Positions 661 to 18,538 of a DNA stretch of 36,827 nt are shown one piece after another. Below the pieces are notes generated by a model. That model was not told the DNA's origin. It saw nothing but the letters and a program-made list of their open reading frames with translations, and did not search any database. Within the stretch, counting starts at the first letter, position 1; every line of letters starts with the position of its first letter. Both the position numbers and the translations under genes were made by a program. The stretch covers positions 1 to 36,827 of the forward strand of contig JAEOTZ010000054.1 of NCBI GenBank assembly GCA_016839585.1. The letters run 5' to 3'. The DNA comes from Promethearchaeota archaeon (GTDB lineage: Archaea; Asgardarchaeota; Lokiarchaeia; Sigyniarchaeales; SOKP01).

Positions 661-1467
661 GTGGGGATTAAAACGATTGTTATATTATCATATTTTCATG
701 TTAAAATAGGACCAACAATATTTTATTCTTTTCCTAAAGCTCAATTGGATAAAGAATTATCAAATAGAATTTATGAAGGTATGAATCAAGCGAACAAAGA
801 AGAATTTTTTACACAATCATTCGGCAATTTGAAGTTATTAAACTATTACTTTCAAATTCACTCAGATTGGGCTCGGGGTAACACAGAAATATTGATGCTA
901 TCAATAATGATTAATCAGCAAATTTCTCCTGAAATTGAAGAGAACATTTCATCCTTATGTAAAAAGTTTTCAGAAAAAATGCAATCAAATGAAGACATTT
1001 TTACTGGGTTCTACTTAAAGGAACTAAACAATTTTGATAAAAGTGACAGAGAGAAAATAATAAAAAACGAGCTCTTAATCAATGAGTGGGTAAAAGATTT
1101 ATATTGGGAAACTCTGGAGGACACGAGAAAAAAATCAGAAGAACAGAAAATTACATTGTTATTAGACGATAGGTATATTTTTGAATCCTTAGAGCTGATG
1201 TCAAAAGAGCTGAAGAAAATCAGTAGAGAGATAAGTTCAGGTGAGGATTATCTGAAAGCGAACTCTAATATCAGAAATTCAGTTTCAAATTTAAATAAAA
1301 TTATTGATGATTTATATGAAGGATACATAGAAAAAATGACCGAACTTGATATTGAATATGAAAACGGCTTGTTTTCCGCAGAAGAAGAATTGGATACTGA
1401 TATTCAAAAGAGCAAAAAAGAATTAAAAAGAGTTTTAGAAGGAGAGATTAATGAAGAAAAAGAATGA
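661..1467 (+). CDS. uDENN/longin-like domain protein (folliculin/NPR2/SMCR8-like N-terminus) with helical C-terminus
   Basis: N-terminal 'ILSYFHVKIGPTI' and 'FQIHSDWARG' match the F-x4-GP and D-x-ARG signatures of uDENN/longin domains. The C-terminus is acidic and coiled-coil-like. Confidence 0.6.
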   Translation: MGIKTIVILSYFHVKIGPTIFYSFPKAQLDKELSNRIYEGMNQANKEEFFTQSFGNLKLLNYYFQIHSDWARGNTEILMLSIMINQQISPEIEENISSLCKKFSEKMQSNEDIFTGFYLKELNNFDKSDREKIIKNELLINEWVKDLYWETLEDTRKKSEEQKITLLLDDRYIFESLELMSKELKKISREISSGEDYLKANSNIRNSVSNLNKIIDDLYEGYIEKMTELDIEYENGLFSAEEELDTDIQKSKKELKRVLEGEINEEKE

Positions 1468-2223: not shown

Positions 2224-4047
2224 CTACTTCTTCTTCTCTTCAAGAGTACTCTTCGTATCGTAGCTATTTTTTAATGATTTTCCTGATTCCCATTCTTTTC
2301 TAAGAATAAATTTCTGAATTAATTCGTTTGCATTTTTTGGTAATTCTTCTTTAAATTCTATATATCTTGGAACCATAAAATAGGCCAAGTTTTGTTGTAG
2401 AAAATTGTGAAATTCTTTGTGAGTAATCGAAGCTCCTTTTTGAATTACAGCACATATTTTTAAATGATTTTCGGAGGATTTGCTATCAGAAACTTCAAAA
2501 ACAGCGCTTTCGACTATAAGTGAATGTGAATTTGCGACTATTTCGATATCCACTGCAAAAAATATCTCCTTTTCTCTATGAATCATGTCTGATTTCCTTC
2601 CTAAATAATATATGAAACCTTCATGGTCTGCATATCCAAAATCGCCAGTGTAAACCCATCGATCTTCTCCTTTTCTTGTTATTGTCTCTTCTTGTAAGTT
2701 ATAGTACTCAAGTTCAAAAGGAAGTCTTGTTCTTGCACAGATTTCACCAATATGATCTCGTCCAGGAGGAAGTTCTTTTCCTTCTGAATCAACAATTTTA
2801 ATTTCAACGCCTCGTGCTGACTTTCCGATAGATCCTAGTTTTCCCCCTTTGGAACCTTCGTTATTTATAGTAAAACCAATACCCTCAACAAGAGACCACA
2901 TTTCAATTATTTGAATTCCAAATCTCCTTTCGAAGGTATCCCATATCTTTTTTAAGGCACCTGCACCGAATGCATATTTAATTGAATGATTTCTATCAAT
3001 TTTTGATGGCAGTTGATTTACAAGCATTGTCAAGTGTGCTCCATAATAACAAAAACCATCAGGTTTATATTTTTCAATATCACTCCAAAAAGTTGAAACA
3101 TCAAATTTCTCTGCGATTATTATCGATCCGTTATGATACATTATTGGAATTATCAAGAAATATCGTTCTAATCCTTGAAATAACGGTAAGGGACAATAAA
3201 ATTTATTAATATTATCGCCAAATCCTAAATCTTTCAATTGCCTTCCTACACTAATTCCTGACAACGTGAAATAGTTCCTATATAGCACTCCTTTTGGAAT
3301 TCCTGTAGTTCCTGATGTATAGGATATTTCAAGAGGATGAAAACTATTCATATGAATATTAGGATTCTCTAAATTTTCAGAAAAGACTTCTGTAAAACTA
3401 GCATATTTATCCTCGTATTTATAATCATTTGGTGCGTTTCGGATAAAAATTTTCTTAATTTTGGGTAAATTTTCGTAAATCTCCTCAACATTCGCAAGAT
3501 ATATATAATCAATAATTAAAATTTCTGAATTGCTATTTTTCAATACATATTCTAGTAAATTCTTTTTTAATAAGTAACTTATTGGTACAAACACGCTACC
3601 GGTTTTTGCAATGGCGAACCAACAAAATAGAGCCCCTGGATTATTTGGAAATATCAAGGAAATATTAGGATTTTTCAATTTTAATTTTTTAATTTGTTTT
3701 ATAAGTCCATTAGCTATCTGATTTGAAATTATATTTACATCTTCATACGTATAAACCTCATTATGATAATAAATGAATGGCTTGTCTTTATTAATTAATG
3801 CTTTACTTTCTATTATTTTTGGTAGTGTAGCATCTTCAATATCGTAAACTTTTGTTAGGTCACTTAAGTTATAGATTTTTCGAATTTCCAAGTGCTCGCC
3901 TTTTAATTCTATCACGACTTCTTCTTTGTCTCTAAAAGGAAAAGCACTATCTTTAGCAATATTACTGGGAATATAGACCCAAAAACTGTCATATTTACGG
4001 TTTCCCGATTTTTTCTTCGAAATTTTACCTTTTCCAGTTTTTATCAT
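2224..4047 (-). CDS. AbrB-like DNA-binding domain fused to a CaiC-like AMP-binding (ANL) acyl-CoA ligase, catalytically degenerate
   Basis: Residues 1-57 contain 'FWVYIPSNIAKDSAFPFRDKEEVVIELKGEHLEIRK' (archaeal AbrB pattern). The ANL motifs YTSGTTGIPKG, YTGD and GRKSD follow. The A10 motif reads LPKNANELIQK with no catalytic Lys. Confidence 0.8.
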   Translation of the reverse strand: MIKTGKGKISKKKSGNRKYDSFWVYIPSNIAKDSAFPFRDKEEVVIELKGEHLEIRKIYNLSDLTKVYDIEDATLPKIIESKALINKDKPFIYYHNEVYTYEDVNIISNQIANGLIKQIKKLKLKNPNISLIFPNNPGALFCWFAIAKTGSVFVPISYLLKKNLLEYVLKNSNSEILIIDYIYLANVEEIYENLPKIKKIFIRNAPNDYKYEDKYASFTEVFSENLENPNIHMNSFHPLEISYTSGTTGIPKGVLYRNYFTLSGISVGRQLKDLGFGDNINKFYCPLPLFQGLERYFLIIPIMYHNGSIIIAEKFDVSTFWSDIEKYKPDGFCYYGAHLTMLVNQLPSKIDRNHSIKYAFGAGALKKIWDTFERRFGIQIIEMWSLVEGIGFTINNEGSKGGKLGSIGKSARGVEIKIVDSEGKELPPGRDHIGEICARTRLPFELEYYNLQEETITRKGEDRWVYTGDFGYADHEGFIYYLGRKSDMIHREKEIFFAVDIEIVANSHSLIVESAVFEVSDSKSSENHLKICAVIQKGASITHKEFHNFLQQNLAYFMVPRYIEFKEELPKNANELIQKFILRKEWESGKSLKNSYDTKSTLEEKKK

Positions 4048-4066: not shown

Positions 4067-4099
4067 TTTACTATTGTAAATAAATAATTCCTAACGTAA
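4067..4099. promoter_or_regulatory. Two TTAC-N4-GTAA boxes upstream of the AbrB-ligase gene
   Basis: TTTACTATTGTAAA at 4067-4080 has perfect arms. TTCCTAACGTAA at 4088-4099 has 1 mismatch. The boxes are spaced 20 bp apart, 21-52 nt upstream of the ATG at 4047. Confidence 0.6.
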
Positions 4100-4128
4100 A
4101 AATAATCTTATAATTTTTTTTCGCATTC

Positions 4129-6135
4129 TTACTTTAAAGGAATTTCATCATATTCTTGTTTTATTAGAGGGAATCTGTCAAGATTATAATGAGGAAAATA
4201 AAGAGAAAAAGTGAATTCCTTTTGAAATGATGGTAATGATGCGATTTCTCTATACTTGATCTCATAGGCGATCTTATTTGCTAGATATCTTTGCTCAATA
4301 TCTTTTATAAATAATTGTGCCCCCATTCCTGCTGAATTTCCAATCTGGAAAATGGAGTTTTGTTCAACTTCAGGGAATAAACCAATAAAAGCAGCATTTT
4401 TTTTATTGATATAAGTTCCAAAGGCTCCTGCTAAAAGAACTTGTTCAAGAGATTCCTTTTTTTTATGTTCCATTTCAAGTAATAAATTAGCTGCAGATAA
4501 AAATGCACCTTTCGCTAGTTGAAGCTGATAAATATCTTTATGAGAAATTGTGATTTCCTTAATATTATTATCATTAATATTTTTTTGATATTGTTCTTTG
4601 TCCCATTCGGCTTTATATATAATATAATGGTATCCATCTTCCCTTTTTACAACACGACGATGTTTCATTACTTTTTCTGATTTGATATTAAATTTTCCCG
4701 CACGCATGATGATATTACATTTCAGCATTTCGGCTATAGTGTCAATGAGCCCTGAACCACACAATCCAAGTGGTTTTATGTTTCCTATTACGCCTATTGA
4801 AGGTTCCAAAGTATTTCTATCAATTTTGACTGATTCTATTGCTCCTTCAGAAGCTCGCATTCCATGTAAAATATGAGCACCCTCCAAAGCCGAGCCAGCA
4901 GCACATGAACATGTAACTAATCCTTCATTATTTCCCAACACAAGTTCACCATTAGTACCAATATCAATTAAAAGAGAATATTTATCGTATGTATTGATTT
5001 TAGATGAGATTATACATCCAATTGTGTCTGTTCCTACGTAGCCAGCAATAACAGGAGGAGAATATACATTTACATTGGGATTACATTTTATTCCAAGCAT
5101 ACCCGCACTTACATTAATTGGGGCTTTAAATACTGGAATGTAAGGTGAAACAGCTAAAAATTCTGGGGTTATTCCAAAAAATATGTGATGCATTCCAGTA
5201 TTCCCTACAACAGAAATATCTTTAACACACGAAATAGAAATGTGAGCTTTATCACAACAATCCTCAAGTATATAATTTATAGCATTAATCACTAATTCTT
5301 TTGCTTTATGAATTGCATTATTTTTTACGATATAGGTAATTCTTGAAATAAGATCTTCACCGATAGCCACTTGAGGATTTAACATTGCAGAAACCGCTGC
5401 AATTTCGCCTGTTTTTAAACAAATTAAATATCCAACAATAGTAGTAGTTCCAATATCGATAGCTAATCCAAAAATCTTATTAATTTTATCTCCGGCATCA
5501 ATATCATAAAGAATCCACGGATCTTCCAATGAGAGCTTTCTAAAAAAAGCTGTAACAACACCATCTTCTTTTCTCATAATATGTGGTAATTTTTTAATAA
5601 TGTTATATAGAATATCATTTACATGAAATAGTGTGTGATTTTCATTTATTTTATAATTACTATTTCTTTCTATTATGCCCTCAAATAAACCAGATAAATC
5701 ATTTCTTGGATTACTTAAATCCGCAGAGGTGATCTTACACAGCTGTGAAGTTATTCCTAGATGAAATTTTTCATTACTTGTTATTCCGAGAGATTCTAAA
5801 TCAGCATCTACTAAAATTCTAATTCCTCTCGAAACTAATGAGTCAGTTAAAAAAACTCTTAAATCTCTAAAAATTTTAGTTTGACATGCTAACCTGTATC
5901 CTTCTAATATTTTTTGGCTACTCAAAAATTTTTTTTCTTTTTCTGATGGTTCTGAAATTTTTGGATTAGGATCTAAAACACGAATAATACATTTTCCACA
6001 TGTTCCCTTACCTGCACATAACGCACCTATGGGAAAGTTCAACGCTAAAAGTGATTCATAAACTGTTGAACCCTCAACAACATTTATTCGTTTAGATATT
6101 GGCTCCAAAATGAGTGTAATTCTCTTATTCCCCAT
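4129..6135 (-). CDS. ATP-dependent reductive activator of corrinoid proteins (RACo/RamA-like ASKHA protein, DUF4445) with N-terminal 2Fe-2S domain
   Basis: CAGKGTCGKC...RLACQ 2Fe-2S motif, followed by DIGTTT, DIGTNGE, CAAGSALEG, GLCGSG and LAGAFG. Confidence 0.92.
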   Translation of the reverse strand: MGNKRITLILEPISKRINVVEGSTVYESLLALNFPIGALCAGKGTCGKCIIRVLDPNPKISEPSEKEKKFLSSQKILEGYRLACQTKIFRDLRVFLTDSLVSRGIRILVDADLESLGITSNEKFHLGITSQLCKITSADLSNPRNDLSGLFEGIIERNSNYKINENHTLFHVNDILYNIIKKLPHIMRKEDGVVTAFFRKLSLEDPWILYDIDAGDKINKIFGLAIDIGTTTIVGYLICLKTGEIAAVSAMLNPQVAIGEDLISRITYIVKNNAIHKAKELVINAINYILEDCCDKAHISISCVKDISVVGNTGMHHIFFGITPEFLAVSPYIPVFKAPINVSAGMLGIKCNPNVNVYSPPVIAGYVGTDTIGCIISSKINTYDKYSLLIDIGTNGELVLGNNEGLVTCSCAAGSALEGAHILHGMRASEGAIESVKIDRNTLEPSIGVIGNIKPLGLCGSGLIDTIAEMLKCNIIMRAGKFNIKSEKVMKHRRVVKREDGYHYIIYKAEWDKEQYQKNINDNNIKEITISHKDIYQLQLAKGAFLSAANLLLEMEHKKKESLEQVLLAGAFGTYINKKNAAFIGLFPEVEQNSIFQIGNSAGMGAQLFIKDIEQRYLANKIAYEIKYREIASLPSFQKEFTFSLYFPHYNLDRFPLIKQEYDEIPLK

Positions 6136-6241: not shown

Positions 6242-6904
6242 TTAATTCCTTAACCATTTATCGATAATATCAACACCTTCTAAAGCGTCTTTTGCGTAAG
6301 CATCTGCTTTTGTTTCTTCTGCGATTTCAGGCGATACAGCAGCACCTCCCAAAATCACTTTTACCTTATTTGCTAATTCTCCATTTTTTAATAAGGACAC
6401 TGCTCTTTTTATGAAGGGTTCCCCAGAAGAAAGAAGATATGAGATACCAATAACTTTAACATCTGGCATTCGAGCAGCTTCTTCAAATTTTACAGGTTTC
6501 ACATCTATTCCAAGGTCGATAATATCCATACCATAAGATTTCATTAACGCGATTAGAATATTTTTACCCAAATTATGAATATCACCTTCAATTGTCCCGA
6601 TAACTACTTTTCCTGAATAATTCCTAGCTTTAGCTAAACTCCTTCTAGTTTCCTCATCTATACATAGGATTTCTCCCTCCAGAGCTTCTGCCGCTAAAAT
6701 AAGCCCCATTTCTCCCGATTCCGCCAATCCCTTTAAAATACCTTTTTTTATTATTTCGATTACTGGGACTCCTACATCTATTGCTTGCTTTATTGTATCT
6801 TTCATCGAAAAAAAGTCAAGTGAACTAACCGCTTCAATAACGTTATTAATATAATAAAAATGATTTTTTGCTTTCTTTTTATTTTCTAAACTCACTTTTT
6901 CCAT
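6242..6904 (-). CDS. Corrinoid (B12-binding) protein, MtbC/MttC/MetH-cap-like
   Basis: 'GTIEGDIHNLGKNI' DxHxxG motif, 'DLGIDV', 'VILGGA', 'ADAYAKDA'. A GAGGT Shine-Dalgarno favours ATG 6904 over 6925. Confidence 0.9.
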   Translation of the reverse strand: MEKVSLENKKKAKNHFYYINNVIEAVSSLDFFSMKDTIKQAIDVGVPVIEIIKKGILKGLAESGEMGLILAAEALEGEILCIDEETRRSLAKARNYSGKVVIGTIEGDIHNLGKNILIALMKSYGMDIIDLGIDVKPVKFEEAARMPDVKVIGISYLLSSGEPFIKRAVSLLKNGELANKVKVILGGAAVSPEIAEETKADAYAKDALEGVDIIDKWLRN

Positions 6905-6944
6905 TATCAAAATTACCTCTCTCATTTCTTAATAATTGATATTA

Positions 6945-7730
6945 TCAAATGATTAAAACGATACCATGCCAAACAACATAGGGAACAGATTCCTTTGGGT
7001 GCTCGGGATTAATTACAAATGGTGGTTTTTCTCCACATTTAACAGCTGTAGCAAATATATCCACTCCACATGCCTCTAGTGAAGGTCTAGCTCTTAAATA
7101 CTGCCGGCACATTTGATTATCGAGCACAGGACAGGGGGGTATTTTTTTTTGTTGCATTAATTCTTTAAAATATTCTGGAGAAAAAAATCCACAACCAACA
7201 CAAGGCCCACCTTTAAATCCCATAGCAAGATAATATCCCAAATATGTTGCTTCTGCTTCTATCATTGAGACCATTTGATTTAATAAATTTACATCTCCCT
7301 GGACACCGAGAAGAATTCCGGGAAAAATATGGTTTTGTGTCGGTGGATAAAATGTAATTAAAATTGCATGATTATAACAACTAACAATTTCTCTCATCTC
7401 TTCGGTAGTTGGAGAATGTGGAGGACAATTTATACTAGTTCCGTAACCAAAACACACAGGAATTCTACATTTCCACCGTACGCGTGGATCTATTACAATT
7501 TTATCTGTTGTTATTAATTTGGCATGACCAGTAGCTTTCATTTTTGATTTTGTAATTATTTGATCTATGATTTTATTAGATCGTTCAAGGAGCTCAAGAA
7601 AGATCTTTTCATCAGGTTCAACTTTTATTGGAGATGGTGGCCTATCTTTCTTTTTTGGTAATACTCTCCGCCATTTGAAAGATATTTTAGACCATTCTTT
7701 CTCAACTTCAGGTATCAATTTCTGTGCCAT
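6945..7730 (-). CDS. DUF2284-family Cys-rich predicted metal-binding protein
   Basis: 'DPRVRWKC...C..YG...NCPP', 'GGPCVGC', 'RPSLEACGVD' and C-terminal 'GIVLI'. Confidence 0.8.
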   Translation of the reverse strand: MAQKLIPEVEKEWSKISFKWRRVLPKKKDRPPSPIKVEPDEKIFLELLERSNKIIDQIITKSKMKATGHAKLITTDKIVIDPRVRWKCRIPVCFGYGTSINCPPHSPTTEEMREIVSCYNHAILITFYPPTQNHIFPGILLGVQGDVNLLNQMVSMIEAEATYLGYYLAMGFKGGPCVGCGFFSPEYFKELMQQKKIPPCPVLDNQMCRQYLRARPSLEACGVDIFATAVKCGEKPPFVINPEHPKESVPYVVWHGIVLII

Positions 7731-7794: not shown

Positions 7795-8000
7795 TTACGT
7801 ACGTAAAAATCTTTCTATTGTAGTAAAAAAATATTAAGTAATTATGAAACCATCATAATTTATAAAACTTATTTGTTTTTTACGTACGTAAATCATAATA
7901 ACAGGAATAAAATAATAATTAGTTAATCAGCTTAAAAAAAAAGAAGTATTGACAAGATTATATGTAATATTTACGTTTTATGATAATTACATTTGTAATT
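7795..8000. promoter_or_regulatory. Three TTAC-N4-GTAA palindromes in the divergent intergenic region upstream of the corrinoid operon
   Basis: TTACGTACGTAA at 7795-7806 and at 7880-7891, and AATTACATTTGTAATT at 7985-8000. Confidence 0.7.
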
Positions 8001-8175: not shown

Positions 8176-9240
8176 ATGGGCTTATTTAAGAGAAGGCGAG
8201 AAAAACCGGAAAAGATCTTTAAGATAAATGATTTAGTGGACTTAAGATTAATTAATAAAAAGACTTATATTTATGTTAAGGATAAGCCATTCATTATTTG
8301 TGCTCATTTATTAATGAATATTCCAGTTGAGAGTATTGACCGTTATGATGAAATAAAATCAATTGATGAGACAGTAGAATTGTTTAAGTCAACTGAAAAT
8401 GTTAAATATATGATATCTCCGGAAGAGGAGTTCATGGGACATTGCTCAAACATTCAGGCATTTTTCGAGAACGGATTAAATACAGACATCTTGCATACAA
8501 ATATAGCATTTCCATTATTAAAAGAATTAGTACAAATAGGATACGAGTTAGCGCGAAGAATCTTCAAGGAAGAAATAGTAATAAGATTTAATGAGGGCAC
8601 TAAAAGTTCAAGATTTTTCTTAAATTCAGGAGGATATCTCGATTATCTTAATGAAGAAGAGAAACAGGCATTAAGAGGCTATAAATCTACATGGTTTCAA
8701 AGAGTGGTCTCTCCTGATTTTATGTTTAAATTAGTCATTTTGGGCGATGATAATGTAGGAAGATCAACATTAGCATTAGACTATTTAAACTCACGGGATT
8801 ATAATCCTCGTCCTCCTATTGGAACAAATCTTGCTATAAAAGACATAGTATTAAATAACAATAATATTAGATTACAAATTTGGTTTCTTTCTAATCTTAA
8901 TATACATGAAAAACTGTGGAGATTATATTTATCTGGATCTTTAGGAGCATTAATCTTATATGATATAACTAACACCAATTCTATGAAAAATATACCTAAA
9001 TGGATTCAGAGAATTAGAGAAAATAAATGGATTCAATCCAGAGGAGATATTCCAATACTCTTGGTAGGGAATAAACTTGATTTACAAGAGAATCGAGTAG
9101 TATCTAAAGAAGAGGTAATTAAAATCAAAAGTAAACACAATCTAACAGAAAGTATGGAAATTTCTTTGAAAACAGGTGAAAATTGTGTGGAAATGTTTGA
9201 TGAAATTACAAAGTTGATATATCAAGCTAATTTTTTTTGA
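8176..9240 (+). CDS. Lokiarchaeal N-terminal domain fused to a degenerate Rab-like small GTPase
   Basis: The N-terminal 'SPEEEFMGHCSNIQA...LH.NIAFPLLKEL' domain is one I recall from Loki LRR proteins. The C-terminal half has FKLVILGDDNVGRST, RLQIWF, LILYDIT, LVGNKLD and EISLKTG. Confidence 0.8.
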   Translation: MGLFKRRREKPEKIFKINDLVDLRLINKKTYIYVKDKPFIICAHLLMNIPVESIDRYDEIKSIDETVELFKSTENVKYMISPEEEFMGHCSNIQAFFENGLNTDILHTNIAFPLLKELVQIGYELARRIFKEEIVIRFNEGTKSSRFFLNSGGYLDYLNEEEKQALRGYKSTWFQRVVSPDFMFKLVILGDDNVGRSTLALDYLNSRDYNPRPPIGTNLAIKDIVLNNNNIRLQIWFLSNLNIHEKLWRLYLSGSLGALILYDITNTNSMKNIPKWIQRIRENKWIQSRGDIPILLVGNKLDLQENRVVSKEEVIKIKSKHNLTESMEISLKTGENCVEMFDEITKLIYQANFF

Positions 9241-9248
9241 ACTCTTGT

Positions 9249-9866
9249 TTAACTAGATTTCTGAAAGAATTTTATTGTAAAGTCTATCAAATTTGAGATA
9301 TATTCAATGAGTTCTTCGTCATTATCAAAAAAGTCCATTACAAATATGTGATGATGAATTAAGGCTTCAATTAGATTGTAAATGAAGGTAAACCTTTTAA
9401 TAAGTCTTTCTTCGGGAATTTTTTTGAACACCATTGTACTTGTCCTAAGATTTTTAGACGTGTCTTTACATATTTCGAGAACCTTATTTTGAAAGGCTTT
9501 CCGTACTTCTTTATGAGATAATATTGAATGTCTTAAAGCTATGCGATACCCTAAATTTTTCCGTTGATTTTCAATATCTTTTGAGATAAAAGGTTTAAAA
9601 ATTTCGGGAATATTGCTAAGGTCGAAAGCTTTGAAATTTTCAATATCTAAAACCATATCTTTTGATTTTTCGAAGTATTTGATTAGAATATCAGATTTTC
9701 CTTTGGGAAAATAATGATATATTGTTCCTACACTAATTTGAGCTTTTTTTGCTATTTTATTTGTGCTGGCTCTATGGAAACCTTTCTCTAATATGAGTTT
9801 AAAAAAGGAATCGTAAATTAGTTTAATTTTTTCTTCCTTATTCCTCTCAATTTTTCGTTTTGACAT
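9249..9866 (-). CDS. TetR/AcrR-family transcriptional regulator
   Basis: HTH 'KGFHRASTNKIAKKAQISVGTIYHYFPKGK'. The likely start is ATG 9866 (MSKRK); the longer ORF would overlap the divergent gene and the operators. Confidence 0.9.
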   Translation of the reverse strand: MSKRKIERNKEEKIKLIYDSFFKLILEKGFHRASTNKIAKKAQISVGTIYHYFPKGKSDILIKYFEKSKDMVLDIENFKAFDLSNIPEIFKPFISKDIENQRKNLGYRIALRHSILSHKEVRKAFQNKVLEICKDTSKNLRTSTMVFKKIPEERLIKRFTFIYNLIEALIHHHIFVMDFFDNDEELIEYISNLIDFTIKFFQKSS

Positions 9867-9875
9867 GATCAATCC

Positions 9876-9947
9876 TATTGAGTTACTACTCAATAACTTT
9901 AAATATGAATGATACCTTATATATTTTATTGAGCTAATGCTCAATAA
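9876..9947. promoter_or_regulatory. Two perfect TetR-type operators TATTGAGY-N4-RCTCAATA
   Basis: TATTGAGT-TACT-ACTCAATA at 9876-9895 and TTATTGAGC-TAAT-GCTCAATAA at 9926-9947, between the divergent tetR and DUF998 genes. Confidence 0.8.
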
Positions 9948-9982
9948 GAAAATTTGAAAAAGTAAATAAGGAGGTAAAATAA

Positions 9983-10618
9983 GTGGAAAGATTGAATGGT
10001 TTTTATGAAAAATTCCCTGGAAGTTATTTTGCGTATATTGCATTTATTTTCGCAGTAATTTTTATGTTAATTTCGGTAATACTTTACAATGATCCAGCAT
10101 TTAGCCTTTTTACTCATTATATCAGTGATTTGGGTGCTTCAACAAAAGGTTCGTCACTTTTGTGGAATACTAGTATGATTATTGTTGCTCCCTTGAGAGT
10201 TGTTTTTGGATTTTACCTACTGACCTTTTTAAAGACAAAAGGTTCTAATGAAAAATCTATCAAAATAACAGCTTATACCATTGTTATTGCTGCTGTAGGA
10301 TCTGTCATCATTGCCTTAAATCCTCATGATGTCTCGCGAATGTTTCACATGATTGGTGCATTTATTTATTTCTTCGGTGTTGTTATCATTCAAGTAAAGA
10401 TATCCAAAATGGAGCTAAATGCAGAAGATATACCAAAATACTTACCAGTCATCGGATTAGTTGTAGTTGTAAATTACGCATTATTCCTTAGCTTTGAAAT
10501 TTCTGAAATAATTTCAGATTTATTCAGGTTTTTAGCATGTTTTTTTGAATGGATGGCTCTATTTAGTATATTAGGATGGCTTTTAATACATGGATTGTAT
10601 CTCCATAAAATAAAATAA
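9983..10618 (+). CDS. DUF998-family membrane protein
   Basis: About 6 hydrophobic helices, 'HYISDLGA' motif, conserved His in 'FHMIGA', and AAGGAGGT Shine-Dalgarno before the GTG. Confidence 0.7.
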   Translation: MERLNGFYEKFPGSYFAYIAFIFAVIFMLISVILYNDPAFSLFTHYISDLGASTKGSSLLWNTSMIIVAPLRVVFGFYLLTFLKTKGSNEKSIKITAYTIVIAAVGSVIIALNPHDVSRMFHMIGAFIYFFGVVIIQVKISKMELNAEDIPKYLPVIGLVVVVNYALFLSFEISEIISDLFRFLACFFEWMALFSILGWLLIHGLYLHKIK

Positions 10619-10626
10619 ATTTTAAT

Positions 10627-11340
10627 TTATTTCTTTTCTATTTTTTTAAATTCTGGTAGGTTATCTGGTGGCCATGCTCGAGCTGTACTACCATCTTTTA
10701 TATATCGGAAATCGCATAGAGGAGCGCCATTTCCTATAGTTTGAGTACGTTTAAAGCCGTATCCGTAGGCTTGAGCCATTGCAAAATCGCTTATGCATAC
10801 AATTGGCATAAAATGTTCAGCACCTTGATTTTTATAAAACTTATAAACACCGCATTCATAATAATCTCTGCCATAGGTAAAAGTTTCGCCATCTCCTTCA
10901 ACGAACTCAAATACCCAATCACCTGGGTACTTGCGTAGTTTAGAAATTTTAGCATTTTCTTTATCTCGGTTTATATATTCTTCGCTAAAAATATCATCTG
11001 TAGGCGGTATAAATTTATAAAATGCTTCGAATAAATCATAAGTCAATTTACCAATCTTATAAAAGTCTAGTCCTTCTTTCTCAAAAAATCGAAGGAATGG
11101 TAGTAAAAGCGCACTGTTAATAAGATCTTCAGTGAGCCTATTATTTTTTCCTCCAACATAAGGGATTTGAGGCAATAACATCTCAAAATCTTTTCGTGCT
11201 TTAGGGATAAATTCTTCAACCTTAACTTCGCCAAAATTTTCAATTAGAATACTTTTTACTATTTGTGTTGCCGCACCAAAAAGTCTCATTAGAGATCTCT
11301 TATTTTTAATATAATATTCTTTTTCTTCTTCATTTGGCAA
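10627..11340 (-). CDS. L-2-amino-thiazoline-4-carboxylic acid hydrolase-family protein
   Basis: 'ECGVYKFY', 'CISDF', 'RTQTIGNGAPLCDFRY'. Confidence 0.8.
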   Translation of the reverse strand: MPNEEEKEYYIKNKRSLMRLFGAATQIVKSILIENFGEVKVEEFIPKARKDFEMLLPQIPYVGGKNNRLTEDLINSALLLPFLRFFEKEGLDFYKIGKLTYDLFEAFYKFIPPTDDIFSEEYINRDKENAKISKLRKYPGDWVFEFVEGDGETFTYGRDYYECGVYKFYKNQGAEHFMPIVCISDFAMAQAYGYGFKRTQTIGNGAPLCDFRYIKDGSTARAWPPDNLPEFKKIEKK

Positions 11341-11739: not shown

Positions 11740-12081
11740 ATGTCTCAAGAAGAAGATATTAGAGAAAGTTTTCAAGTGTTGGATGTTATTAAACTCAAGT
11801 TAAATGAAATCCTAATTAAAGGAATCAATAGCTTAAGTAATGAAAACAACTCAGAACTCGTTAATTTAACACAAAAGTTAGAGGAGATGAATTTTTCGAC
11901 TCTTAGCAAACACTTAAAATCATTTAATGAGAAATTGAAAAAAATGATTCAGAAACCAGTTCCAATGAATTTAAAGAAAGATATTTCAATAGAAATTTTG
12001 AAGATAATAAGTATAGCTAGAATACTTGAACGGATTATGACACTTGAAAGTGTTAAAAAAATTCTAAAAAGGGGGAATTAA
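11740..12081 (+). CDS. Hypothetical helical protein, first gene of the MoxR-VWA operon
   Basis: 113-aa ORF, 4 nt from the next gene. Confidence 0.7.
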   Translation: MSQEEDIRESFQVLDVIKLKLNEILIKGINSLSNENNSELVNLTQKLEEMNFSTLSKHLKSFNEKLKKMIQKPVPMNLKKDISIEILKIISIARILERIMTLESVKKILKRGN

Positions 12082-12085
12082 ACTA

Positions 12086-13228
12086 GTGAATGTTCAATTA
12101 GAAAAAGTAGCCGTCCAAATAAAGGATTATACTGAAAGTTTGGCCTTTAATGGATTGAATTTTGTTTCAAATGATAACATTAAAAAAATAGAATTTTTCT
12201 TACATAATGCATCTCAGTTAGAAGCATATCGATTGGCCACATCATTAAGATATTTACATATTGAATTAAAACGATTTCTTAAGAATCGAAGTATTTTCAA
12301 TATCGAAAGGTATGTCTTTTTCCTTAGCAACTGTTGGCTTTTAAGTCGAGCTTTCGTCTCTGAAAAAGACCTTAGGGATAAGAACCCAGACATTTTTAAC
12401 AGCTTAATGGGAACTCAATTAAATCCTAAAATAAGAAGTAAATTCATTCTCAAGGTAGTCGGAATAGAGAAAATACACCTAGAAGGAACTATTGTAGGAT
12501 TTGTTTTTTATTTTCTATCCTTATTTGGAAAGACAAGAAATAAAATATTAAAGTGGAACTTAATGCTTCCATATAAAACTGGAGTGACTCCAGAATCCTT
12601 ATTACATCATGATCTACCTAATTCAGATCCCTCAAGCGTGGTTAACACCATTCTTTCAAAGTATATTGAAGCAGACAACTTACCCTACGTTGAGAAGGAG
12701 GATATTATTTACTTGGAAAAAAATCCTAAATCTAAAATATATATTGATGAAGAATCATCCGAGGATACTCACGTTTCTATCAAAAAATTAGATAAATATT
12801 ATCTTAATGCAAAAGAAATTTATCAAAAAAATTTCAAAGATTATGAGGTAACTCCTTTTGATTTACCAGCAAGCATTTTGGATTATTTGTATGTTAAAGA
12901 TGTATATGTGATAGATTTTCAAAAAGAAGGAATAGAAGGAGATAGAACTCCTACTTTTGTTTTTGAACTAACTCATAGGGAAGATTATCCACTAGTTATC
13001 AGAATTCCCGAGAAGCAAGGAAATCTAAAATTAATTGAAGAATTCAAAAAATTAAAGGGTAGAAGGACCTCCATTGATGGGATTTTTTGCAAGATAATTC
13101 CGGAAAATGGGCAACTTAGTTTATATCCCCTTAGTATTATTAATAATAATCAAATTTCATATCCAAATCTTAAAAAAATTGCTCGAGATAATAGAGCATT
13201 GTTAAAATCAACGTATAAAATAAAATAA
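12086..13228 (+). CDS. Hypothetical protein in the MoxR-VWA operon
   Basis: 380-aa ORF with GGGGG Shine-Dalgarno-like sequence upstream. No motif recognised. Confidence 0.75.
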   Translation: MNVQLEKVAVQIKDYTESLAFNGLNFVSNDNIKKIEFFLHNASQLEAYRLATSLRYLHIELKRFLKNRSIFNIERYVFFLSNCWLLSRAFVSEKDLRDKNPDIFNSLMGTQLNPKIRSKFILKVVGIEKIHLEGTIVGFVFYFLSLFGKTRNKILKWNLMLPYKTGVTPESLLHHDLPNSDPSSVVNTILSKYIEADNLPYVEKEDIIYLEKNPKSKIYIDEESSEDTHVSIKKLDKYYLNAKEIYQKNFKDYEVTPFDLPASILDYLYVKDVYVIDFQKEGIEGDRTPTFVFELTHREDYPLVIRIPEKQGNLKLIEEFKKLKGRRTSIDGIFCKIIPENGQLSLYPLSIINNNQISYPNLKKIARDNRALLKSTYKIK

Positions 13229-13260
13229 TTAAAAATTAAAAAAAAAAGAAATGATAAATT

Positions 13261-14589
13261 ATGGAAAAAAAAAAAGTACCACAGAAATCAACTACACCTA
13301 AATCTTTTACAAAAATAACACCCCCAGCTTCAAAAAATACATCACCATCTCCTCCAAAAAAGAAACCTCCAACTTCCAAGACTACAACAACAAAAAAACC
13401 AACTCCAGCTCTCCGTAAAATTCCTAAAATATCACTTGGGTCTAATAAAAAATCAAGTAAAACAGAAAATGAGAAAATTCGATTTCCTGCTGAAGAATTG
13501 CATAAAGAAGAATTAAAAGCATTAATTCAAAATGATACGTATCCAAAACCCCCAAATTGGCAATTATCACCAAAGATGGTTGAATTATTTATTACAGGTT
13601 CGAATGAGGAATTTCCATTAAAAGTAAATGGTACTCAGAAAAAAATAAAAATTTCTACTAAATTCTATGGACAACGGGATCTCATTCAGAAATCAATTGT
13701 GACACTAGCGAGCGAACGAGCACTCATGTTAATAGGAGAACCAGGAACAGCAAAATCTTGGCTATCAGAACATCTTTCTGCTGCGATTAGCGGCACGAGT
13801 ACATATCTAATTCAAGGAACGGCGGGAACAACTGAGGACCAAATTAGATATTCTTGGAATTATGCCCTCCTCGTTTCAGAAGGTCCTAGTCCAGAATCAT
13901 TAGTACCTTCCCCTACGATAAATGCAATGAGAGAAGGGAGGATATTAAGATTTGAAGAATTAACACGGTGTCCCCAAGAAATTCAGGATAGCATGATATC
14001 GATCCTCTCAGAAAAGGTCATCCCTATCGCGGAGTTGGGTTCTGAGTATTTAATATTCGGAATTCCAGGATTCAATGTAGTTGCCAGTGCTAATGATCGA
14101 GATAGAGGGGTAAATGAAATGAGTGCGGCTCTAAAACGCCGTTTCAATTTTATATACATTCCGGTAATTCAAGATAAGAGTTTAGAAAGAAAGATTGTAT
14201 TGCAACGAACGAATGATTTATTGACAAAGATAGGTTTTAAAATCCAGATTCCCGAGGATACATTAGATTTGTTAATTACTGTTTTTCAAGAATTGAGAAC
14301 AGGACGTAGCACGAGTGGCGGACGATTTACTCCTATCTCGACTGTAATGTCCACTTCAGAAGAGATTTCCTTGCTCTTCGATAGCGCTATATATGCAAAA
14401 TTCTTTGGTAAATCAGAGGTCCAACCGAAACATGTAGCTATGAACCTTATAAGTGCAATTGTAAAGGATGATAAAGAAAACCTTCCTAAATTAAGAGAAT
14501 ATTTTAATATGGTCGCTAGGGTGAGAGCAAACAAATCAGATACTTGGAAAGAATTTGCCAATGCATTCAAAAAACACGCAACTTATTAA
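13261..14589 (+). CDS. MoxR-type AAA+ ATPase, YehL-like
   Basis: Walker A 'GEPGTAKSWLSEHL', 'IQGTAGTTEDQIRYSWNYALL', Walker B 'RFEELTR', and 'ANDRDRGVNEMSAALKRRFNF'. Confidence 0.9.
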   Translation: MEKKKVPQKSTTPKSFTKITPPASKNTSPSPPKKKPPTSKTTTTKKPTPALRKIPKISLGSNKKSSKTENEKIRFPAEELHKEELKALIQNDTYPKPPNWQLSPKMVELFITGSNEEFPLKVNGTQKKIKISTKFYGQRDLIQKSIVTLASERALMLIGEPGTAKSWLSEHLSAAISGTSTYLIQGTAGTTEDQIRYSWNYALLVSEGPSPESLVPSPTINAMREGRILRFEELTRCPQEIQDSMISILSEKVIPIAELGSEYLIFGIPGFNVVASANDRDRGVNEMSAALKRRFNFIYIPVIQDKSLERKIVLQRTNDLLTKIGFKIQIPEDTLDLLITVFQELRTGRSTSGGRFTPISTVMSTSEEISLLFDSAIYAKFFGKSEVQPKHVAMNLISAIVKDDKENLPKLREYFNMVARVRANKSDTWKEFANAFKKHATY

Positions 14590-14594
14590 AATCC

Positions 14595-17078
14595 ATGAGT
14601 GATACATACTTAAGTGCTGCTAATCTCAAAAAGATACTTTTTGAGATAGGAACTTCATTGGGGGTTGACAATTCAGATATTGATGCCAAGGTTGATAAAG
14701 TAAAGAAATCCGAAATAATTTATTTACCCATTCGTCACCATTCACCAGGCTCCACAATATTAGTAAAGAAATGGATTGAAAAGTACGAACCTAAGTTAAT
14801 CTTGGTTGAAGGTCCAGCCTTAGCAGATAATTTAATCAAGTACATGGTTGAACGAGATACAATCCCTCCAATTGCGATTCTTTCGCTTTTTGCAGATACC
14901 AATAATACCTTTGGTTTGAATGGAATTCTTAGTCCTGATAAATTAGTACCCGCAAAATTTGAAGCATATTATCCCTTTGTATCATACTCTCCTGAACTCG
15001 TCGCTCTCTCAGAAGCCATTAAAAAAAAAATTCCTATTCATTTCATTGATCTACCACTCACGGGACTAATTTCATGTTCTTCTGCGAATTTAAAGGATCC
15101 TTCTAAAAAGGTAGATCTATTCAATATAGAGGGAGAATCTATTTACAATTTAAGCAAATTCTACAAAAAATTTGCTCAAGTATTTGATTTTGAGGATTTC
15201 AATGAATCTTGGGAGACTTTATTTGAAATAGGTGCCAATAAATCCGATATTGACGAGCTGAGGGAGAGTATGCTCTTATTTTGTGCGTTTATTCGACAGA
15301 CAACAGACATGAAAATACTCAAAGCAAATAGTACGCTTACAAGAGAATCATATATGAAACACAACATCGAAACTTATAAGAAGAAATATAAGGTTAAGGA
15401 CAAAGATATACTGGTAATAACTGGTGGTATACACTCTATTGCATTGCCAGATACTCTTCCGCAATCATATCCTTTTCCGACAAAACAATTGATTAATTCG
15501 TTAGTACCCTATTCTTATTACAGAATAAGTCAAAAATCGGGTTATATGTCCGGAAATCAAGCACCCCAATTTTATAATAGTATTTGGAAAAAATTCACTT
15601 CACAAGTGGAGCATCCATATTCAGCAGTTGCATTAGAATTTATTACTGATATATTTAAAGATGCCCGTGTAAAGGGAAATGTCGTATCCATTTCCGATTC
15701 TATTAATTCTTACCAGGGTGCTAAGATGTTGGCAATGTTACGAAGACGGGAAGAACCTGATCTCAAGGATGTTATCGATTCCATTTATATGGTATTGGTT
15801 AAGGGTAATCCAGAAATTGAGGGAAAATATCTTGACTCCTTGATTCAAGAAAAATCTATCGGGTATAAAGTTGGTAAGGTTACCAAGAATATTGGCAGAT
15901 TACCCCTTCAAAAGGATTTTTACCTCCAGTTGGAAGCTCATGGGATTGATCCTGAGGAAAAGGTCCAACAAAAGATTATTAATTTACGGGAAGAAGCCGA
16001 ATCGAAATTATCACAATTATTCTGGAAAATTAAATTTTTAGGAATTGATTACGCACACCGCTTGCTAGGTCCCGATATACTTAAGGGAGATACCGGAATA
16101 TTCACTGAAAAATGGAGCCTAAAATGGAATCCAAGAATTGATGCGAAGCTCGTGGAATTGAGCACGTATGGAGCAACCTTGGAAGAAGCCAGTAAAAACA
16201 TGTTAGTCGAAGAAACCAAGAAGAACGTGAAAAATTTCGGCATTATTACGAATCTTTTATTTCAAAGTCTTTCAATGGGTTATACTGATCATTTCAAGGA
16301 TTTACACAAAGAGTGCTTAAACTCGCTTGAAGTGGATAACCAGTTTTTAAGCTTAACAGAGGGATTCTTTAATTTAATAATGATCTTTCAATTCATGGCG
16401 ATGATGGGTTGTTCGAAAGATGATATGGATCTCATGGAACAACTCATTCAGCGGAGCTATTACACCTGCTGTTTTTCCATACCAAATTTTGCAAATCCGC
16501 CGAGTGGAGATGAAGTAAAATATATTGATGCAATGAAAATGCTAGCAAACACGTTAATATCAATTCAAAATATCGAGATCGATTTGAATGTATATATTGA
16601 AAGCATAAACACTTGTGTTGAAAATACAAGTAACGAGTTCATCAAAGGGGGGACTGTTGGTATTCTCTATTTATTAAACTACATGAAGGTTAAGGAAATC
16701 GAAACGTTAATTTATGAATATTTGAATAGTATTGACTCTATAAAAGTAAAAATTGGTGATTTAATTCGAGGACTCATTTATGTATGTCAAGCAAAGCTAA
16801 TATTCAATCAAGATATAATACGGGTGTTAGCTAAAGTTGTTGAGACTATAGAGTGGGAGGTGTTTTCTGCCATTTTACCGCCATTGAGAAAAGCATTTTC
16901 CGAACTTCACCCAACTGAATACGATATTTTCGTGGAAAAACTGGCTGAACATTATGGATTAATAAAAAGGAAGCATGCGGAATTGATGGATATTGTTGAA
17001 GAGGATGTAAAAAATTTCTTCAAGATCGTAGATGAGAAGGTGAAAAAAATATTTGAAGAATGGTTTGGAGAGGTATAA
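14595..17078 (+). CDS. DUF5682 / YehM-like protein
   Basis: 'PIRHHSPG', 'ILVEGP', 'YYPF..YSPE..A', 'FIDLP', 'RE.YM', 'VITGGIH', 'PYSYYR...SGY.SG'. ATG 14595 follows the ATPase stop. Confidence 0.85.
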   Translation: MSDTYLSAANLKKILFEIGTSLGVDNSDIDAKVDKVKKSEIIYLPIRHHSPGSTILVKKWIEKYEPKLILVEGPALADNLIKYMVERDTIPPIAILSLFADTNNTFGLNGILSPDKLVPAKFEAYYPFVSYSPELVALSEAIKKKIPIHFIDLPLTGLISCSSANLKDPSKKVDLFNIEGESIYNLSKFYKKFAQVFDFEDFNESWETLFEIGANKSDIDELRESMLLFCAFIRQTTDMKILKANSTLTRESYMKHNIETYKKKYKVKDKDILVITGGIHSIALPDTLPQSYPFPTKQLINSLVPYSYYRISQKSGYMSGNQAPQFYNSIWKKFTSQVEHPYSAVALEFITDIFKDARVKGNVVSISDSINSYQGAKMLAMLRRREEPDLKDVIDSIYMVLVKGNPEIEGKYLDSLIQEKSIGYKVGKVTKNIGRLPLQKDFYLQLEAHGIDPEEKVQQKIINLREEAESKLSQLFWKIKFLGIDYAHRLLGPDILKGDTGIFTEKWSLKWNPRIDAKLVELSTYGATLEEASKNMLVEETKKNVKNFGIITNLLFQSLSMGYTDHFKDLHKECLNSLEVDNQFLSLTEGFFNLIMIFQFMAMMGCSKDDMDLMEQLIQRSYYTCCFSIPNFANPPSGDEVKYIDAMKMLANTLISIQNIEIDLNVYIESINTCVENTSNEFIKGGTVGILYLLNYMKVKEIETLIYEYLNSIDSIKVKIGDLIRGLIYVCQAKLIFNQDIIRVLAKVVETIEWEVFSAILPPLRKAFSELHPTEYDIFVEKLAEHYGLIKRKHAELMDIVEEDVKNFFKIVDEKVKKIFEEWFGEV

Positions 17079-17083
17079 TATAA

Positions 17084-18538
17084 ATGGGTCCTAAACAAAT
17101 TTTTGACGAAAAAAAGCTCACGAGCCTACCGGAAAATAAAAGAGAGGCTATGGATAGATGGAGATTAATTTTGGGAAAAAAAGCTGAAGATCATGATATC
17201 AATTTTAGTCCTGATGATGTAAAAGATAGAGATGAAGAACTAGACGAGGAAAAACAGGAGGACAGAGAACAAACTAACAAAGAAGATAAGAGTGAGGGAG
17301 AAGGTAAAGGAGAGGAAAAGGAGGAAAATGAAGGAGACGATATGGAAGACTCGGGAATGAAAGGTGCAGGATCGGGATTTGGTGGTAAGAAAGGCGGATT
17401 TGGTAAGAAACCAACTGGAAAAGGCCAAACTGGATCCGGCAAGAAGCCATCTGGTATGAGTCGAAGTGGATTTGGCAAGCAACAATCTGGTTTGGGGCGA
17501 GCTAGTCTTGGCAAGGAGAAATTTAAGAAAATGGATGACACTTTAGACTTTGTTTATGGTCAACAGGTTGATCAAAAACGCAGTGCAGGGTTAGGTCCCA
17601 GCAGTCTCTCGATTCCTAATTGGATTGAAAACGTGAAGGAACTTTTTCCTACAGATACAAAAGAAGTGCTCGAAAAAGATTTAGTCGAACGATCCGATAT
17701 TAAAGATATTATTGCAAATCCAGAGTTATTTGAAAAGGTAGAACCGAGTCTTGAAATGGTAAAGACTATTATTGCTTTAAAACATATGCTCCCGAACGAA
17801 GTAAAAGATGTTGCTCGTACTTTAGTTAGAAAAGTTGTTGAAGATCTAAGAGATAAATTTAAGGATGAAGTTGAAAAACACATCATAGGAGCAATTAAGC
17901 GAGATATGCACACGCCTATAAAAGTTTTTAGAAATATTGATTGGAAGGAAAGCATTCGCAAGAATTTGAAACATTACGACTCAAACTCGAAAAAGTTAAT
18001 CATGGCCGAACCCCGGTTTTATTGTGCCGAAAAAAAGAAGAAACCGTGGCAGATAGTGGTTTTAATAGACGAGAGCGGTTCTATGACAGATTCAATAGTT
18101 TATTCCGTGGTGCTCGCATCGATTTTTGCGAGCCTTCCGGCAGTTCATACCAATCTCGTGATTTTCGACACCCAAGTCGTTGATCTTTCGGATAGGATTG
18201 ATGATCCCGTTGAAGTGTTAATGACGGTTCAATTAGGCGGAGGCACGAATATCGCTAAAGCTGTACAATACGCTCAAACGCTGATTAAAAATCCGAAAAA
18301 AACGATAATGGTAATTATTAGCGATTTTTATGAGGGAGGAGGCTATAATCGATTAACCGATACGCTAAAGAAAGTATTAGAAGGGCAGACTAGGATCCTA
18401 GGAATCGCTGCGTTAGGGTATAATAATGAACCAATGTATGATAGAAATTATGCTAAATTCATGAATACACTAGGAATCGATGTCCTCGCTTGCACTCCCA
18501 AAAATCTTCCGGAGATTATTGCAAAACTTATGCAATGA
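17084..18538 (+). CDS. VWA-domain protein (VWA_CoxE / YehP-like)
   Basis: 'RWRLILG' N-terminus, MIDAS 'DESGSM', 'QLGGGTNI', 'ISDFYEG'. Confidence 0.9.
   Translation: MGPKQIFDEKKLTSLPENKREAMDRWRLILGKKAEDHDINFSPDDVKDRDEELDEEKQEDREQTNKEDKSEGEGKGEEKEENEGDDMEDSGMKGAGSGFGGKKGGFGKKPTGKGQTGSGKKPSGMSRSGFGKQQSGLGRASLGKEKFKKMDDTLDFVYGQQVDQKRSAGLGPSSLSIPNWIENVKELFPTDTKEVLEKDLVERSDIKDIIANPELFEKVEPSLEMVKTIIALKHMLPNEVKDVARTLVRKVVEDLRDKFKDEVEKHIIGAIKRDMHTPIKVFRNIDWKESIRKNLKHYDSNSKKLIMAEPRFYCAEKKKKPWQIVVLIDESGSMTDSIVYSVVLASIFASLPAVHTNLVIFDTQVVDLSDRIDDPVEVLMTVQLGGGTNIAKAVQYAQTLIKNPKKTIMVIISDFYEGGGYNRLTDTLKKVLEGQTRILGIAALGYNNEPMYDRNYAKFMNTLGIDVLACTPKNLPEIIAKLMQ

Follow-up and report, generated by a model that had tools for sequence, protein, structure and literature searches.

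The fusion gene and its product

The stretch of DNA considered here, hereafter the window, comprises positions 1 to 36,827 of contig JAEOTZ010000054.1 from a lokiarchaeial member of the Promethearchaeota (GCA_016839585.1), whose genome of 3.45 Mb has a GC content of 29% and is 99% complete. At positions 2224-4047 of its minus strand lies the gene for P0001, a candidate transcription regulator of 607 amino acids (aa) in which a small swapped-hairpin domain is joined to a CaiC/FATP-like ANL domain, as supported by the open reading frame (ORF), Pfam, a homologue search and a tree. The AbrB-like swapped-hairpin domain covers residues 1-59 (3871-4047) and is delimited by its predicted structure, a dimer model and structural matches, while the ANL (AMP-binding) domain covers residues ~70-600 (2248-3840) according to Pfam, NCBIfam and Foldseek. 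A preliminary description of the sequence had pointed to an in-frame, stop-free extension of 57 aa, and this is indeed the start of the 607-aa ORF: residues 1-57 are encoded at 3877-4047 and the frame runs uninterrupted into the ligase.

By fold and descent P0001 is a member of the ANL superfamily. Pfam assigns residues 85-440 to AMP-binding (166.5 bits, cut-off 29.9) and residues 501-574 to AMP-binding_C (29.9 bits, cut-off 24.5), and the ANL part matches solved structures with an E value of 9e-26 in Foldseek. The top NCBIfam matches of this domain are PRK06187, PRK06155 and PRK08008, each of them below its cut-off, with 258.6 of the 722 bits needed for PRK06155 and 215.8 of the 651 bits needed for the CaiC model PRK08008. 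A putative DNA-binding domain and a likely input domain in a single chain make up the architecture of a one-component regulator, which is kept across the family.

Distribution and origin of the fusion

When residues 1-75 were used as a query, 31 protein clusters of 568-607 aa were recovered; all are AMP-binding proteins, and their N-terminal regions share 61-100% identity with the query. The N-terminal domain is present in 120 of 124 family proteins, and the remaining four are short, apparently N-truncated and start within the ligase. At the genome level the domain is matched in 56 of 161 Lokiarchaeia genomes, nearly always inside a frame of ~600 aa, whereas outside the Lokiarchaeia matches occur solely in short frames (400 genomes of the phylum); the relatives are mostly labelled Promethearchaeota or Lokiarchaeota. 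The junction near position 3870 is bridged by contigs of runs X5, X7 and X8 from three other studies (P2, P3 and P4). The fusion is therefore not unique to this assembly and is confirmed as real rather than an artefact. In a tree of the ligase part only, with other ligases of the host genome as outgroup, the 17 sampled fused proteins form a single clade with support of 100/100 which nests among unfused PRK06155/CaiC-like ligases, and this indicates a single origin of the fusion. Pooled ratios of non-synonymous to synonymous substitutions (dN/dS) of 0.12 in the small domain and 0.17 in the ligase fold, both approximate as dS is near 1, indicate that the gene is not decaying and that both domains are under purifying selection.

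Five loci labelled Hodarchaeota, Odinarchaeota, Thorarchaeota or Hermodarchaeota (L053, L057, L063, L065 and L068) carry fusions that are 70-89% identical to P0001. Since long fusion frames in the genome search are confined to Lokiarchaeia, these labels may be wrong. Split or partial copies of the fusion gene occur at L083:1-1149, L135:4109-4660 and L106:11371-11994; among the partial copies are a gene interrupted near position 645 and a broken copy in genome G032, and a duplicated C-terminal piece of 208 aa was found downstream of an intact fusion copy.

The N-terminal domain

At the sequence level residues 1-60 match no Pfam or NCBIfam family at E<=1. Nothing significant was found when the domain alignment was scanned against PHROGs or in sequence searches of the PDB, with MazE appearing at E 0.7-1 only, and a feature search of the ESM Atlas with the domain yielded no usable match; the similar clusters of that atlas are archaeal. 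A profile search recovered 203 relatives of the domain, mostly stand-alone proteins of 50-100 aa. Among 85 aligned relatives, weak matches to hidden Markov models (HMMs) are found for PF04014 in 30 (best E 1e-4) and for TIGR01439 in 11.

The AlphaFold2 (AF2) model of the monomer, built on the alignment of these relatives, has a pLDDT of 90.8 and predicts a beta-beta-alpha-beta-beta fold in which two hairpins (strands 8-13 and 20-25, strands 44-49 and 52-57) are joined by a short helix (28-31), with the basic loop located between beta1 and beta2. When this model was compared with 48,161 chains in a VIA structural search, the ten best matches were all swapped-hairpin proteins (including 5ITJ, VapB, C56, SpoVT, AbrB and MazE), at Z scores of only 2.8-4.7, the domain being small and compared as a monomer; the best match has a Z of 4.7 and a root mean square deviation of 1.9 over 46 aligned residues. 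Foldseek ranked the same swapped-hairpin proteins first, all at E>=0.86 and none at E<=0.001.

Modelling of two copies of the domain, in line with the check proposed in the preliminary description, predicts an interlocked swapped-hairpin dimer with a score of 0.59 compared to 0.01 for the best of three controls. Of 30 proteins whose solved structures are pairs 20 attain the mark applied to this score, as does one of 23 solved as single chains, and that the domain passes it may reflect a likeness to solved AbrB dimers. The dimer runs share at least 97% of their contacts at a pLDDT of at least 77. Inter-chain contacts are predicted between residues 5-9 and 42-46, 23-25 and 23-25, and 53-55 and 53-55, and the resulting strand pairs b1-b3', b2-b2' and b4-b4' correspond to a barrel of the order b1, b2, b2', b1', b3, b4, b4', b3', which is the order found in the swapped-hairpin barrel of VapB2 (PMC3326315). 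The models thus suggest that the domain belongs to the AbrB-like swapped-hairpin fold and would work like an AbrB domain, yet it is not a member of PF04014. Of the original assignment as AbrB/SpoVT-like, the fold and the dimer are borne out by prediction, whereas the AbrB and MazE family HMMs remain unmatched.

Stand-alone copies of the domain of 63-66 aa are encoded in Lokiarchaeia at L142:4001-4201 (P0045), L138:992-1180 and L139:4480-4674. P0045 is encoded two genes downstream of a fusion gene, within its predicted regulon, and mixed dimers that modulate the regulator could be formed. Four further proteins (P0062, P0100, P0107 and P0150) contain two tandem copies per chain, likely arranged as a single-chain pseudo-dimer.

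The ligase domain

Five residues are invariant across 374 ANL enzymes (PMC6122825), of which P0001 retains four, namely Glu388, Gly434, Asp469 and Arg484, while the fifth, the Lys of motif A10, is replaced by Leu576. The P-loop and the A5 Glu, A6 Gly, A7 Asp and A8 Arg of ANL ligases are all present. The A3 P-loop is intact (residues 243-253, 3289-3321 on the minus strand, as are all positions in this section), and so is the A7 TGD motif (2641-2649); in motif A5 (residues 384-388, 2884-2898) the Trp and the invariant Glu388 are kept while the Gly and the Thr are changed. Across the fused proteins Pro251, Lys252, Trp384, Glu388 and Asp469 are kept at 98-100% (Lys252 in 136/136, Glu388 in 135/136, Trp384 in 134/136 and Asp469 in 133/136).

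In contrast, three features expected of an active ANL acyl-CoA ligase are missing from P0001: the catalytic Lys of A10, the gate His and the A8 Rx(D/K)x6G loop. Gln291 (3175-3177) replaces the A4 gate His in the alignment, the eroded A8 loop (residues 490-497, 2557-2580) has Lys493 in place of a Gly, and within motif A10 (residues 570-579, 2311-2340) Leu576 (2320-2322) occupies the position of the catalytic Lys. Among solved structures FATP2 matches the family profile best, and in this enzyme the mutation K572A abolishes, H268A impairs and T365A reduces activity (bioRxiv 10.64898/2026.07.06.736331); these three residues align to Leu576, Gln291 and Val387 of P0001. In FATP2 the adenosine of an acyl-CoA can also sit in the ATP site (bioRxiv 10.64898/2026.07.06.736331), which is one way in which such a pocket could read acyl-CoA.

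The losses stand out against the 22 nearest unfused relatives, a subfamily of PRK06155-like ligases from bacteria (loci L107-L129). The A10 position is basic in all 22 (Arg in 18, Lys in four) compared to 16 of 133 fused proteins, while 28 fused proteins have a Glu there; the gate His is present in 22/22 unfused and 33/136 fused proteins; and the Gly of the A8 loop, which in the unfused relatives is part of an almost invariant RRRGEN motif, is found in 22/22 and 46/136, respectively. The deepest-branching fusions, L050 and P0230, keep every motif of the unfused relatives, while the clade of P0001 has lost them, and a related clade combines a Glu at the catalytic A10 position with a changed P-loop. 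A basic residue at A10 was adopted as the criterion in place of a GK at this position. The absence of GK had been considered as a sign of inactivity (0/133 fused proteins compared to 12/12 paralogues) and was rejected, as the nearest unfused relatives are also without it. In LACS of T. thermophilus Lys527 is the structural salt-bridge partner of Glu451 (PMC6122825), and P0001 retains the equivalents of both, Lys579 and Glu502. Lys579 is unlikely to act as a stand-in catalytic residue because normal ligases keep it as well, in the role of this salt-bridge partner.

The motif pattern suggests that the ligase domain may be maintained as a nucleotide pocket without turnover. The earlier label of an ANL enzyme holds for the fold, while the losses at A10, at the gate and in the A8 loop make the domain more probably a sensor. 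In two loci (L080:9920-11644 and L104:904-2607) an unfused FadD-type ligase with an Asn at the A10 Lys position is encoded directly downstream of the fusion gene and is possibly a second disabled ligase.

A candidate operator

The palindrome TTAC-N4-GTAA occurs in exact form at 4068-4079, 20 nt ahead of the fusion gene's start codon, and again with one mismatch at 4088-4099, 20 bp from the first site; a TATA-like element at 4107-4114 (minus strand) may serve as an internal promoter of the fusion gene. When all spaced 4-bp palindromes in the 150 nt before the fusion genes were searched without bias, TTAC-N4-GTAA ranked first with 35 of 57 genes, compared to 0.33 in base shuffles. Of 55 fusion loci, 33 have the exact palindrome in front of the fusion gene; after clustering to account for kinship, it is present in 16 of the 21 groups formed at 70% identity and in 8 of the 11 formed at 55%, against a background of 8 of 2958 genes of the host genome and 0 of 22 unfused ligases. 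In two loci of 21.8 kb from distant clades the sole site directly precedes the fusion gene. A second TTAC half-site is often located upstream of the main site, in 30 cases at a distance of 20 bp and in 11 at 13 bp.

The second group of sites precedes the DUF2284 gene at 6945-7730, the first gene of the predicted regulated operon. An alignment of the upstream regions of 22 relatives shows a conserved TATA box, located in P0001's own genome at 7859-7866 (minus strand), and the palindrome 50-60 bp downstream of it (7795-7806), which is exact in 21 of the 22 orthologous operons. A degenerate partner with two mismatches lies 20 bp away at 7815-7826, and a further exact site 13 bp upstream of the TATA box (7880-7891) is shared by the closer relatives only. 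An exact palindrome farther upstream (7987-7998) is not conserved in the alignment and may be due to chance. The window thus holds four exact sites where 0.56 are expected, all within the two relevant intergenic regions, and these make up four of the nine intergenic sites of the whole genome. A role as a general promoter element was considered and rejected, as the genome has only nine intergenic sites and this spacing is not enriched relative to others.

In loci with a recognisable TATA-like box, the main site is mostly located 30-60 bp after it. Known archaeal repressors have sites in such a position downstream of the TATA box, and by analogy repression is suggested here. From clade to clade the gene neighbourhoods vary but the site remains in front of the fusion gene, which makes the fusion protein itself the simplest candidate for the factor that binds it. 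The stand-alone relatives of the domain that were examined have no such palindrome just upstream, and two distant DUF2284-corrinoid pairs without a nearby fusion have no site upstream either, a weak observation as it concerns two cases.

Putative target operons

In the window the DUF2284 gene, which encodes a predicted metal-binding protein (Pfam, orthologues), is followed on the minus strand by genes for a corrinoid (B12-binding) protein of the methyltransferase-cognate type (6242-6925) and for the corrinoid reductive activator RACo (4129-6135), both identified by Pfam and NCBIfam. The order DUF2284, corrinoid protein, RACo activator and then fusion is that of the clade of P0001, and a clear fusion match is found in 30 of the 33 genomes carrying an orthologue of DUF2284. 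Genomes G085 and G032 have the operon without a fusion match, but their contigs stop inside the operon. In another clade the site precedes the gene of a 175-aa protein without a Pfam match (10/13) and that of a family-5 ABC binding protein (8/8). Other neighbours of fusion genes encode thiolases, unfused CoA ligases, CoA transferases and enoyl-CoA hydratase as well as flavin oxidoreductases and 2-hydroxyacyl-CoA dehydratases. The neighbouring functions overall comprise CoA-dependent catabolic, corrinoid and transport genes and differ between clades. The CoA-dependent neighbours make a CoA-activated acid the likeliest signal; methoxylated aromatic acids or betaines would fit the corrinoid system, which is speculation.

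A possible mode of action

Taking all readings together, it is very likely that P0001 is a DNA-binding regulator of some kind. The preferred explanation, which is considered probable, is that it acts as a one-component, autoregulated repressor in which a disabled CaiC/PRK06155-like acyl-CoA ligase has become the ligand sensor. Two N-terminal domains are predicted to interlock into a swapped-hairpin barrel, and the dimer would bind to TTAC-N4-GTAA, often at paired sites 13 or 20 bp apart. As these sites, whose pattern rests on comparative genomics, lie about 30-60 bp past the TATA-like box, where one is recognisable, and coincide with or directly follow the expected transcription start (predicted near 7835 and near 4085 in the window), transcription would be blocked. 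The ANL domain, deprived of the catalytic Lys, gate His and A8 loop and with its adenine-nucleotide pocket kept, would no longer turn over and would bind a ligand instead, most likely an acyl-CoA, an acyl-AMP or a carboxylate together with ATP or AMP, derived from the pathway encoded nearby. Binding of the ligand may then move the mobile C-terminal subdomain and thereby loosen the operator complex. In the host genome the targets would be the fusion gene itself and the DUF2284-corrinoid-RACo operon. An extension of this proposal to the whole family has an even chance of being correct: it would be the first family of transcription factors with an ANL sensor, comprising basal intact ligase-repressors and derived pseudoenzymes which use one TTAC-N4-GTAA operator to control different CoA-dependent, corrinoid and transport operons.

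Several observations weigh against the repressor with a disabled ligase. The N-terminal domain is without a match to an AbrB family HMM, 12 of 25 close relatives have no exact site before the fusion gene, and the genomes are related by kinship so that the counts overstate their independence. The family does not appear to be uniformly disabled, as judged from the full motif set of the basal fusions L050 and P0230, and since the nearest unfused relatives mostly have an Arg at A10 (18/22), a missing Lys is a weaker sign of inactivity in this subfamily. The full-length AF2 model has a pLDDT of 62.8, which is too poor for conclusions on active-site geometry or an allosteric path.

Some of these points favour a bifunctional enzyme-repressor following the logic of BirA and PutA, which would use the same operator with a ligase that is still active, perhaps slowly or in one half-reaction, and that makes or uses its own effector. 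P0001 has an intact P-loop, Glu388, Asp469 and Arg484, the parent subfamily had already exchanged Lys for Arg at A10, the basal fusions have the full motif set and a dN/dS of 0.17 suits an enzyme as well as a sensor; moreover, ANL enzymes with one half-reaction exist, as PtmA1 and PtmA2 split it between them (PMC6594144). However, P0001 has lost residues of both half-reactions (the A10 basic residue and the gate His as well as the A8 Gly and arginines), Lys579 is an unlikely substitute given the salt-bridge role of its LACS equivalent Lys527 (PMC6122825), and a related clade has a Glu at the catalytic position along with a changed P-loop. Dual function is therefore regarded as rather unlikely for P0001 and is more likely for the basal members.

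There is a small chance that the N-terminal domain merely dimerises a metabolic protein and that another factor binds the palindrome. Swapped-hairpin domains are strong dimerisation units and the examined stand-alone relatives have no site just upstream, but the palindrome accompanies the fusion gene in 8 of 11 deep clades with differing neighbours, it is not a general promoter element in the host genome, and the basic beta1-beta2 loop is conserved in a domain with a dN/dS of 0.12. A similarly slim chance is given to a repressor in which the ANL domain persists only as a structural or oligomerising remnant, or which is signalled to by a protein partner or a modification, with no small ligand involved. 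The paired sites 13 or 20 bp apart, which suggest contacts between dimers, and the stand-alone copies of the domain, one of them within a fusion locus, would agree with this, whereas the specific conservation of the nucleotide-pocket residues is unexpected for a mere scaffold. An artefact of assembly or gene calling, or a chance one-off fusion, has nothing in its favour other than the missing Pfam match of residues 1-60 and is already refuted by the many genomes, the one clade and the junction bridged in three studies.

Comparison with known regulators and ligases

The predicted beta-beta-alpha-beta-beta monomer of the P0001 domain, the order of its interlocked dimer and its basic first hairpin loop are the same as in the AbrB/MazE/SpoVT domains (PF04014; VapB2, MazE, SpoVT, AbrB and the archaeal 5ITJ, C56 and C68). 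Unlike these, the domain has no HMM match, a longer first hairpin and no toxin partner, and its D-x-x-F-P-F linker is typical of a separate archaeal subfamily. Where AbrB-type proteins have a toxin-binding tail, P0001 has an ANL domain of 540 aa. In SpoVT the swapped-hairpin domain is joined to a GAF domain. VapB2 dimers bind to adjacent near-palindromic sites (PMC3326315), which is reminiscent of the paired sites described here.

P0001 shares the fold, the P-loop, the A5 Glu, the A7 Asp and the hinge Arg with CaiC/PRK06155-like ligases and FATP, and differs from the CaiC/PRK06155-like ligases in its extra N-terminal domain and, in the derived clade, in the absence of the A10 basic residue, the gate His and the A8 loop. 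One-component regulators derived from enzymes include MocR/GabR with an aminotransferase fold, the archaeal ThiR with an inactive ThiN, RbkR, the ROK repressors, BirA, PutA and NadR. As proposed for P0001, they combine a DNA-binding domain with an enzyme fold which serves as the sensor, in some cases while still working as an enzyme, and they are often located beside the genes they regulate. To our knowledge, an ANL class I adenylate-forming fold and a swapped-hairpin DNA-binding domain are both absent from these regulators. FadR, PaaX, FerR/CouR and BadR have TetR, GntR or MarR folds, and their effector is produced by a separate, active ligase; the predicted logic is the same, namely derepression by a CoA thioester of the pathway. 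PtmA2 is a non-adenylating acyl-CoA ligase of the ANL fold which is reported to carry out one half-reaction only (PMC6594144); compared by description only, it is a biosynthetic half-enzyme and is not reported as DNA-binding. A literature search, to which most subscription journals were outside coverage, found neither the fusion nor an ANL-fold sensor with a swapped-hairpin domain, and the names given to the fused proteins in databases are those of common AMP-binding proteins or CoA ligases. Enzyme-derived one-component regulators are thus already known, and the combination of an ANL sensor with a swapped-hairpin domain is probably undescribed.

Other genes in the window

The DUF6125 gene on the minus strand (1577-2119) was considered as a part of the system and rejected, as it follows the fusion gene in four loci only. 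Divergent from the DUF2284 operon, across the palindrome region, lies a gene (8176-9240, plus strand) for a Ras/Rab-like small GTPase (Pfam Ras, residues 185-349) with an N-terminal extension of ~180 aa; the representative of its BLAST cluster has leucine-rich repeats and was probably matched via a shared N-terminal domain. A 268-aa protein encoded at 661-1467 (plus strand) resembles by eye the longin/DENN-like domains of Asgard archaea, has an acidic C-terminus and shows a weak match to Cor1 below the Pfam cut-off. Five co-oriented genes at 11740-18538 (plus strand), including those for an AAA_5 ATPase, a DUF5682 protein and a CoxE-type VWA protein, make up a MoxR/VWA-type system. A protein of the ATC_hydrolase family is encoded at 10627-11340 (minus strand), beside a TetR gene at 9249-10043.

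Implications

How Asgard archaea control transcription has hardly been studied, and P0001 supplies a predicted regulator together with its predicted operator and target operons. If the proposal is true, the ANL fold joins the enzyme folds that have been reused as sensors of transcription factors, and the present annotation 'AMP-binding protein' or 'crotonobetaine/carnitine-CoA ligase' would have to be revised for about a hundred proteins. The identity of the ligand would show which substrate is served by the uncharacterised DUF2284-corrinoid-RACo operon, and acyl-CoA biosensors could become possible. As the family spans active sites from intact to eroded, the transition from enzyme to sensor is open to direct study.

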